Assembly: GCA_965662335.1 (NCBI GenBank)
Contig: CBFIGQ010000045.1
Location: 1,156-65,155, forward strand
DNA length: 64,000 bases
DNA from: Minisyncoccia bacterium
GTDB taxonomy: Bacteria; Patescibacteriota; Minisyncoccia; Phycocordibacterales; UBA9973
Direction of reading: 5' to 3'
Positions 10,805-11,245 of the stretch are shown here, piece after piece. Within the stretch, counting starts at the first letter, position 1. The number at the start of each line of letters is the position of its first letter. A program made the translations under genes and the position numbers. Below the pieces are notes generated by a model, which did not search any database, was not told the origin of the DNA, and was given only the letters and a program-made list of their open reading frames with translations.

Positions 10805-11245
10805 GGAGCCCCGCTCGCACCCCTCTCGTCCTTGCGAGCGGGGTTTTGCGCACACGCGAACGGGAGGGCGGGTCAAGTGTGCATAGCATTCCGCCTCGGA
10901 CATTTCCGCTATGAGCGTCCATGGCTAAAGGATGAGCGCCGACGATATAAGCAAGGGATAATCTAAAATCTTGAGAAATACTCGGATATGAAAACGAGGA
11001 TGGGGGTTGGCTGAGCCGGTTGGTCGAGCCCTGCCGAGACGAGGCGAAGCTGGGGGAAGGCTTCCTTCCTTCCCCCAAACAGCTGGCGCCCGAGCTCCGG
11101 CACCGCAGTGCCGTAGAGCGAGGAAACGCGCCAAACCTAGACATCTAGGCGCGAGTAGCCCTAGCGGAAATGTCCGAGGCGGATGCCGAGGATGGACTCC
11201 TTTGGTCACGGACGATAGAAAATGGTAAAATGTCCGAGACACCAC
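10805..11245. other. GC-rich ~440-bp non-coding block with many stable hairpins; candidate structured RNA and/or recombination switch
   Basis: Sharp compositional contrast with the AT-rich cargo. Hairpins ccccgctcgca/tgcgagcgggg, gggggaagg/ccttccccc, ggcac-cgca-gtgcc and cctaga-ca-tctagg. ORFs here are low-complexity R/P/G strings. Confidence 0.35.
10890..11185. repeat. 254-bp segment bounded by perfect 21-bp inverted repeats (CCGCCTCGGACATTTCCGCTA / TAGCGGAAATGTCCGAGGCGG)
   Basis: Read directly: 10890-10910 is the exact reverse complement of 11165-11185. A third partial same-orientation copy AAAATGTCCGAGAC lies at ~11226-11240. Confidence 0.7.

Follow-up and report, generated by a model that had tools for sequence, protein, structure and literature searches.

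ROOL and GOLLD are large ornate bacterial non-coding RNAs of hundreds of nucleotides (nt) with many helices and junctions, and they occur in prophages, a mobile-element context, and near tRNA genes. The IS110 bridge RNA, the IS1111 seekRNA and the IS605 omega RNA are structured RNAs at the end of an element near the recombination site, sometimes directly upstream of the recombinase, and they act together with the enzyme of the element. In this study, a GC-rich non-coding block that resembles both groups in these respects was analyzed in 64,000 nt of DNA from Minisyncoccia bacterium (Patescibacteriota; assembly GCA_965662335.1, contig CBFIGQ010000045.1, positions 1,156 to 65,155 of the forward strand). 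This whole stretch is called the window, and coordinates refer to it unless a locus number (L) is given. The block lies at one end of an integrative element that carries a large serine recombinase gene. An initial annotation, made from the sequence of the window, had proposed that the block might be a structured RNA of no universal class, associated with an element.

The block differs from these systems in several respects. Unlike ROOL and GOLLD, it has no match to their Rfam models at E values up to 10, it occurs in Patescibacteria hosts, and its location is bound to a single end of a serine-recombinase element, next to an inverted repeat. It is also smaller, with a core of 400 nt and about 600 nt when a second domain is included. 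Unlike the IS110, IS1111 and IS605 RNAs, which go with a DEDD recombinase or TnpB/IscB, it accompanies a large serine recombinase. It has no loops complementary to target or donor in seven of the nine loci compared, and it is optional in its family, with a place relative to the recombinase gene that is not fixed (four arrangements).

The yeast 2-micron plasmid has two inverted repeats, a site-specific recombinase and an origin beside one repeat, and recombinase-driven inversion amplifies its copy number. The layout of the present element resembles it: a circle split by two repeats with recombination sites, a recombinase in one segment, a special non-coding region beside one repeat, and isomers. 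Unlike the 2-micron plasmid, the element has a serine and not a tyrosine recombinase and integrates at tRNA genes, and no evidence of replication was found. The DUF3800-associated, drum and skipping-rope motifs (PMC5737381) share with the block complex conserved folds and unrelated structures at equivalent positions, which were found here in L072, L056 and L087. A DUF3800-motif reading of the block was rejected. The 254-aa protein encoded upstream has no DUF3800 match in Pfam or NCBIfam and is not linked to the RNA elsewhere, the genes upstream of the homologues vary, and no Rfam model of these motifs matches.

Results

The block is a conserved, non-coding and highly structured nucleic-acid element that runs from 10803 to about 11202 on the + strand. 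The structured element is most likely RNA. It represents a new family of large structured RNA of about 400-600 bases and belongs to no catalogued RNA family. The conserved structure probably continues through a second domain to about 11402. The block of the initial annotation (10805-11245) is thus real, and its bounds were too narrow on both sides, with conservation beginning at 10803.

At least 584 relatives of the recombinase were found in one-per-species genomes, all of them Patescibacteria. Among the 80 recombinase loci returned, blastn and nhmmer detected the block in 14 (73-93% identity), with conserved motifs set apart by insertions of variable length. When metagenomes were scanned with 18 bases of the long helix (a motif in its 3' strand), at least 120 loci were obtained, about 100 of them with full-length homologues (E values of 1e-50 to 1e-117). 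The 79 representatives below 95% identity measured 393-521 nt as extracted, including 5-25 nt of flank. In total, more than 100 copies of the block were found in Patescibacteria genomes and metagenomes. Phage and plasmid collections held no DNA similar to the block, and the motif matched one contig among 2.9 million viral contigs. Exact-protein look-up of the 254-aa open reading frame (ORF) returned ten contigs. This ORF is confined to near-identical copies of the element, and other homologues have different genes upstream. Samples with near-identical copies include JGI 3300010345, 3300025724 and 3300025740. Because the neighbouring gene is variable, the RNA is associated with the end of the element rather than with any single cargo gene.

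Covariation was scored in 45 sequences below 88% identity, using a MAFFT alignment, an RNAalifold consensus and custom scripts. The results showed that standard pairs filled 91.6% of the predicted pair cells, compared with 33-46% when partners were slid by 1-3 columns. Both sides had changed in 36 of the 79 pairs, whereas the shuffle mean was 19.7, slid partners gave 14-19, and none of 500 shuffles reached 36. Cells changed on both sides numbered 206, versus 72 in the shuffled and 34-58 in the slid data. On each of five covariation measures, no shuffle among the 500 matched the observed value. Among paired cells, GU and UG (283) exceeded AC and CA (54). This excess of G-U over A-C points to the + strand as the folded strand and as the putative RNA strand. 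GNRA tetraloops capped one hairpin in 38 of the 45 homologues. Of the results that could overturn the proposal of a conserved structured RNA, an Rfam match or an absence of conservation or covariation, neither was obtained; homologues were found, and they covary.

The GC profile bore out the high-GC block in AT-rich surroundings that had been described: local GC was 0.55-0.65 over 10800-11300 versus 0.25-0.36 in the 1 kb before. A perfect 22-bp inverted repeat is present (10890-10911/11162-11183), and no such match occurred in 100 shuffles of the window. The predicted RNA fold of 10798-11245 had an energy of -201 kcal/mol (z = -5.3), and none of 100 shuffles was equally stable. For 10805-11460, z was -9.3 on the + strand and -8.1 on the - strand. 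Fold energy by itself is no discriminator between an RNA and a DNA palindrome. The ORFs across the block are low-complexity R/P/G strings, as had been noted earlier. No reading frame was open in more than 7 of 78 homologues, whose lengths modulo 3 were 27/27/24. A protein-coding reading was rejected because frames are not kept open in the homologues.

Searches against known RNAs gave no match for the block. At the gathering thresholds of Rfam 15, three tRNAs alone passed in the window, and at E values up to 10 nothing meaningful appeared over 10500-12100. In nine diverse homologues, the block also lacked a match, save one sub-threshold chance hit (P17, E = 0.16). The unmatched families include RNase P, tmRNA, SRP, 6S, GOLLD, ROOL, OLE, HEARO, raiA, hammerhead, group I and II introns, and the DUF3800 motifs. 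ARAGORN found no tmRNA in the window. These results agree with the earlier view that the RNA is not of a universal class. A hammerhead-like reading of the three-way junction (GAUGAG...GAGUA) was rejected, since the core positions did not agree by inspection and Rfam gave no match. In the literature searched, a description of neither the RNA nor the element layout was found, and the element type is widespread and apparently undescribed.

Predicted fold of the RNA

The overall fold is predicted to consist of a 5' helix round a G-rich motif, followed by a closing helix of 24-26 bp that opens into a three-way junction (Table 1). The large inner domain would contain a hairpin with a GNRA cap, a G/C hairpin and arms whose length varies. 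All four hairpins named in the initial annotation were recovered: 10809-10819/10833-10843 in P-1, 11051-11060/11068-11077 as P7, ggcac-cgca-gtgcc at 11099-11112 and cctaga-ca-tctagg at 11135-11148.

The onset of conservation at AGGGAG is abrupt. GGGAG, which was the anchor of the scan, stood at the same position in 72 of 72 homologues, and the preceding base was A in 63 of 72. The sequence upstream is AT-rich and unconserved. P-1, an 11-bp GC stem with UUUU, begins 5 nt past the end of the 254-aa ORF (its stop codon) and resembles a terminator for it; the terminator scan did not list it, as its 13-nt loop is over the limit of the scan. In window-like homologues, the stem is very divergent in sequence yet paired and the U tract is lost, and P-1 is missing from the other subclass of homologues. 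We counted P-1 in the RNA family because covariation is present in its stem and the U tract is unconserved. In the window copy, it may also be the terminator of the upstream gene. In P0 (79 sequences), 10847/10881 was UA in 41, CG in 24 and UG in 8, and 10859/10873 was CG in 42 and AU in 36. Many homologues have a covarying hairpin inserted within the G-rich motif of P0.

The inverted repeat had been given as 21 bp and as a possible long-range closing helix. Its length is 22 bp, and the helix itself is well supported as P1. In the 45 sequences, 95.7% of P1 cells were paired, with compensatory changes (A-U -> G-C in 17 of 45), and 10900/11173 was GC in 25, AU in 17 and GU in 2. In P2, 97.7% of cells were paired, and 10917/10933 was GU in 30 and GC in 15. 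P3 varied at 10937/11151 (CG 36, UA 7, GC 1). The junction hairpin was GCGAAAGC in 27 of 45 and GCGGAAGC in 11 of 45, both of them GNRA, and the window has the variant UCUUGAGA. The P8 segment was 30-82 nt long in 57 sequences; its individual folds had a mean z of -4.2, and 95% were below -2. Bases 11130-11132 are contested between P5 and P8 in the window.

On the 3' side of the long helix, CCGAGG or CCGAGA occurs three times (11174-11179, 11186-11191 and 11233-11238), and each copy could pair with the single CCUCGG in the 5' strand of the helix (10894-10899). The third copy is within an 11-nt repeat of the helix strand (11228-11238). An alternative pairing of these copies is possible, but the base at which they vary shows no covariation.

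Downstream of P9, in the region 11203-11241, an A-rich sequence, AUG and CGAGRCA are retained in most homologues. In six diverse copies of the second domain, 12 of the 32 predicted pairs were changed on both sides, and diverged copies share the architecture. Since this domain reaches into repeat arm B', the conserved structured region is about 600 nt.

Table 1. Features of the element, of the RNA and of related loci.
Feature	Coordinates	Strand	Description
Integrative element	4239-11455 (7.2 kb)		At 3' end of tRNA-Glu
tRNA-Glu(UUC)	4166-4238	+	Integration target; 3' end at 4238 is the junction
Arm A (left end)	4235-4353 (119 nt)		Adjoins tRNA-Glu; 93% complementary to 5819-5937; encodes recombinase ORF tail (-)
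Large serine recombinase gene	4177-5763	-	Pfam Resolvase, Recombinase, Zn_ribbon_recom; between A and A'
Internal A'B unit	5819-6107		Contiguous; reverse complement of right end joined to left end
254-aa ORF	10039-10803	+	Upstream neighbour of block
GC-rich block	10803-11245	+	Non-coding, 55-65% GC beside genes at 25-36% GC
AGGGAG motif	10803-10808	+	Abrupt start of family-wide conservation
P-1 hairpin	10809-10843, then UUUU to 10847	+	11-bp stem, 13-nt loop
P0 helix	about 10847-10883	+	Encloses conserved G-rich motif ACGGGAGGG-CGGGUCAAG (ACGGGAGGGCGGGUCAAG)
P1 closing helix	10890-10916/11158-11183	+	First 22 nt are the perfect inverted repeat
P2 hairpin	10917-10933	+	GUCC[AUGGCUAAA]GGAU, at three-way junction
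P3	10936-10940/11148-11152	+	GCGCC/GGCGC; 100% of cells paired
3' strands of P3 and P1	11148-11183 (11148-11152 and 11158-11183)	+	Linked by GAGU
Variable junction	10941-11001	+	Small hairpin and conserved UGAAAA
Central multi-helix domain	11002-11138	+	P5, variable arm, P7, P8
P5	11002-11007/11130-11138	+	11003/11137 GC 26, UA 9; 11007/11130 GC 13, UG 11, UA 9
P7 hairpin	11051-11060/11068-11077	+	11056/11072 AU 27, GC 18
P8 tiered hairpin	about 11085-11132	+	Arm variable in length and sequence
P9 3' hairpin	11188-11202	+	GAGGA[UGGAC]UCCUU; inner pair GC 14, AU 11, GU 11 (n = 45)
Promoter-like site	11203-11231	+	TGGTCA, 17 nt, TG-n-TAAAAT; faces repeat
Conserved motif CGAGACAC	11234-11241	+	After promoter-like site
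Second structured domain	11249-11402	+	Closing helix GAAUUCCGUC/GACGGAAUUC, hairpin 11259-11281, long arm with A-rich/C-rich loop
Arm B' (right end)	11280-11455 (176 nt)		99% complementary to arm B (5932-6107); crossover about 11450-11455
Small OmdA-family ORF	11391-11705	+	Downstream neighbour of block
tRNA-Ser	11860-11947	-	Neighbour of block
Alternative structured sequences (about 230-300 nt)	L072:6701-6960, L056:5450-5710, L087:716-1010, L088:7202-7397	reverse	Non-coding

The serine-recombinase element

The block was confirmed to be associated with an element, as the initial annotation had supposed: it is inside a serine-recombinase element, at one end. The interval 4166-11453 recurs at 94-99% identity in other contigs, and identity to these copies stops at 11453. 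Since the identity is limited to this interval and the flanks differ on both sides, 4239-11455 is an integrative element at the 3' end of tRNA-Glu, with the block inside. An empty integration site was not found; exact-protein look-ups of two host genes returned no records. Each element has two inverted units of about 300 bp with the attachment core, of which one is intact internally and one is split by integration. A repeat search over 3-13 kb revealed two large inverted repeats, A/A' and B/B'. Complementarity to the two ends makes the internal A'B unit another, inverted copy of the attachment region. Elements across the recombinase family generally have such a double inverted repeat (A/A', 74-153 bp, 84-100%; B/B', 93-273 bp, 89-100%; cargo, 1.4-9 kb).

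The NCBIfam matches of the recombinase were CcrB and XisF, all far under the curated cut-offs. Past residue 454, the recombinase frame is open for a median of about 71 codons, with at least 50 codons in 81 of 83 homologues. This extension (within 4177-4400 on the - strand in the window) passes through arm A and over the crossover, and it ends in the antisense of the target tRNA or in arm B. Because the ORF crosses arm A to the crossover, the C-terminal tail depends on the integration state. The tails of the family members indicate several different target tRNA genes.

The cargo between B and B' comprises an XRE regulator, a 431-aa protein, two N6/N4 methyltransferases (one a LexA-like fusion), the 254-aa ORF and the GC-rich block. 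The proteins of 6533-10013 are the 431-aa protein (no family match), an N6/N4 methyltransferase of 248 aa and a 476-aa protein in which a methyltransferase is fused to a LexA DNA-binding domain and an S24 peptidase. This part of the cargo resembles a type II restriction-modification module. The window element also has a 764-bp deletion (6390-6527 vs L001:3332-4243), so that most of a 303-aa DUF5655 gene carried by L001-L005 is missing from it. Elsewhere in the window, two stretches (27000-29000 and 46000-48000) have a low GC content (0.35-0.39 vs about 0.45 elsewhere) and are possible further islands.

In every locus that shows both, the RNA is found just outside one repeat copy, at a distance of 30-60 nt, and is directed into this copy. 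The exception in distance is L040 (229 nt), whose detected repeat is shorter. The RNA stands beside one repeat copy only, never both, and the recombinases near it have 34% to 95% identity to that of the window. Four linear arrangements were seen, all of them present in metagenomes and expected from a circle with two inverted attachment units. The RNA is distal and divergent in the window, L012, L029 and L051; convergent with the recombinase in L166, L171 and L198; directly upstream and co-directional in L186, L202, L093 and L147; and distal after the recombinase in L184. Contigs L147 and L160 end in inverted recombinase copies, as expected if both orientations coexist in the population. The four arrangements suggest inversion, or integration through either copy.

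Discussion

Taken as a whole, the data are best explained by a new RNA family that belongs to a family of serine-recombinase elements and is proposed to control the recombinase in cis; we give this explanation somewhat better than even credence. The role in controlling the recombinase is what we infer from the sequence context. Outward promoter-like sequences stand at both ends of the cargo and are directed into a repeat copy: a TATAAT just outside arm B (-), at the XRE end, noted by eye, and the site at 11203-11231. A repeat copy invariably stands before the recombinase gene. The RNA and the promoter-like site at 11203-11231 would act in cis as a structured transcript or leader. The RNA may then control transcription that crosses the attachment region and enters the recombinase gene or runs against it. 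Because two inverted units would allow inversion or integration via either copy, the RNA end is sometimes upstream of the recombinase and sometimes convergent or far. Recombinase expression could thereby be coupled to the configuration of the element. A more specific version is that the RNA and the second domain are a working part of a so far undescribed "flip-flop" serine-recombinase element, setting recombinase expression or directionality per configuration, or acting as primer or origin of a 2-micron-like amplification; we regard this version as doubtful.

Several observations weigh against the cis-control explanation. The RNA is present in only some elements: L086 and L089 have an ORF abutting the repeat instead, and L072, L056, L087 and L088 carry a different structured GC-rich sequence at its position (Table 1). 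Apparent compensatory changes were seen in the alternative sequences of L056 and L087, and that of L072 had no Rfam match. L053 (7494-7770, reverse strand) has a short version in which AGGGAG, P-1 and P0 are kept and a small hairpin, GCCUCG...CGAGGC, stands in for all 290 nt of the P1 domain. The 3' strand of this hairpin is CGAGGCAC, a motif found downstream of the full-length RNA. Since elements without the RNA exist, recombination does not require it. Nor does the RNA keep one fixed place with respect to the recombinase, a point that weakens a simple leader model. The homologue scan found no conserved promoter and no positioned -10 box upstream of AGGGAG, the downstream -10-like box is conserved only moderately, and no canonical terminator was found downstream of the block. 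The MAFFT alignments on which covariation was scored are imperfect in variable regions. A folded single DNA strand would be an alternative to RNA.

As DNA, the fold might work as a replication or transfer origin or as a recombination accessory region of the excised circle, or it might specify a ColE1-like primer RNA. Single-stranded DNA structures are indistinguishable from RNA by comparative analysis (Weinberg et al. 2017, PMC5737381). The lack of a conserved upstream promoter, the G-rich tracts of the 5' domain, the C-rich loop of the second domain and the position beside one repeat only, an asymmetry like that of the 2-micron origin, would all suit such a role. However, no Rep, relaxase or primase gene is conserved across the elements, elements without the block exist, and GNRA tetraloops in a multi-junction fold are typical of RNA. 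The single match among viral contigs and the absence from plasmid and phage records also speak against DNA, and we consider this role improbable. If the block is RNA, it could be a free-standing cargo RNA similar to ROOL and GOLLD, with no part in the recombination or regulation of the element. Its size, complexity and mobile-element context fit, as do the variable neighbouring cargo, its presence in part of the element family and the different RNA at the same place elsewhere. Ordinary cargo, by contrast, would not keep a constant position and direction relative to the repeat, nor adjoin a second domain that extends into it, so that a mere passenger seems rather unlikely.

Of the roles suggested in the initial annotation, a large ornate RNA on an element fits the data, and a recombinase guide or bridge-like RNA found no support. 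A guide would pair with target or donor DNA, and the RNA is indeed encoded at the element end by the attachment region, in some copies directly upstream of the recombinase. Large serine recombinases, however, recognise their sites by protein domains. In seven of nine loci, the longest complementarity to the attachment sites was 8-9 nt, as expected from a shuffle mean of 8.1-8.5. The other two loci, with 12 nt each, form no consistent pattern. One of them, AUUGCAAAUGAG in the RNA of L029 (L029:2247, L029:11558), shows complementarity to the anticodon stem-loop of the tRNA gene which that element targets. This match is probably due to chance, because it contains the palindrome UUGCAA, which tRNA-Glu-targeting elements also have, and because L030, with the same apparent kind of tRNA target by its recombinase tail, lacks the match. 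Elements without the RNA have the same architecture, and a guide function is very unlikely. The perfect 22-bp terminal inverted repeats 250 bp apart, and the L053 version that lacks exactly this segment, recall a miniature inverted-repeat transposable element or foldback element of 294 bp that landed in the larger one. Yet it has no target-site duplication, its flanks extend the complementarity, it is single-copy in the 64 kb, and all homologues share the same element context and place; moreover, covariation is seen both in the arms, with G-U pairs on one strand, and in the conserved interior, which leaves such an insertion hardly credible. The same low standing applies to the block as merely a terminator, an insulator or a decayed GC-rich gene fragment. 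The first hairpin and its UUUU after the 254-aa ORF favour a terminator, whereas about 400 nt of conserved multi-helix structure is far beyond what a terminator needs. For the whole block, this last reading is refuted by that structure, the covariation and the loss of frames, and the U tract is unconserved.

Few bacterial RNAs are both large and intricately folded, and new biochemistry has come from the majority of them. With more than 100 diverse copies and strong covariation, the block is ready for structure probing or cryo-EM. The non-coding RNAs of the ultra-small Patescibacteria are almost unexplored. Serine recombinases are genome-engineering tools, and an RNA that controls or assists one would, if the proposal is true, be of practical interest. 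The layout of the element alone poses a testable question, namely how integration, inversion and recombinase expression are coupled. If the flip-flop or 2-micron-like reading is true, a functional link between a structured RNA and a large serine recombinase would be established for the first time.

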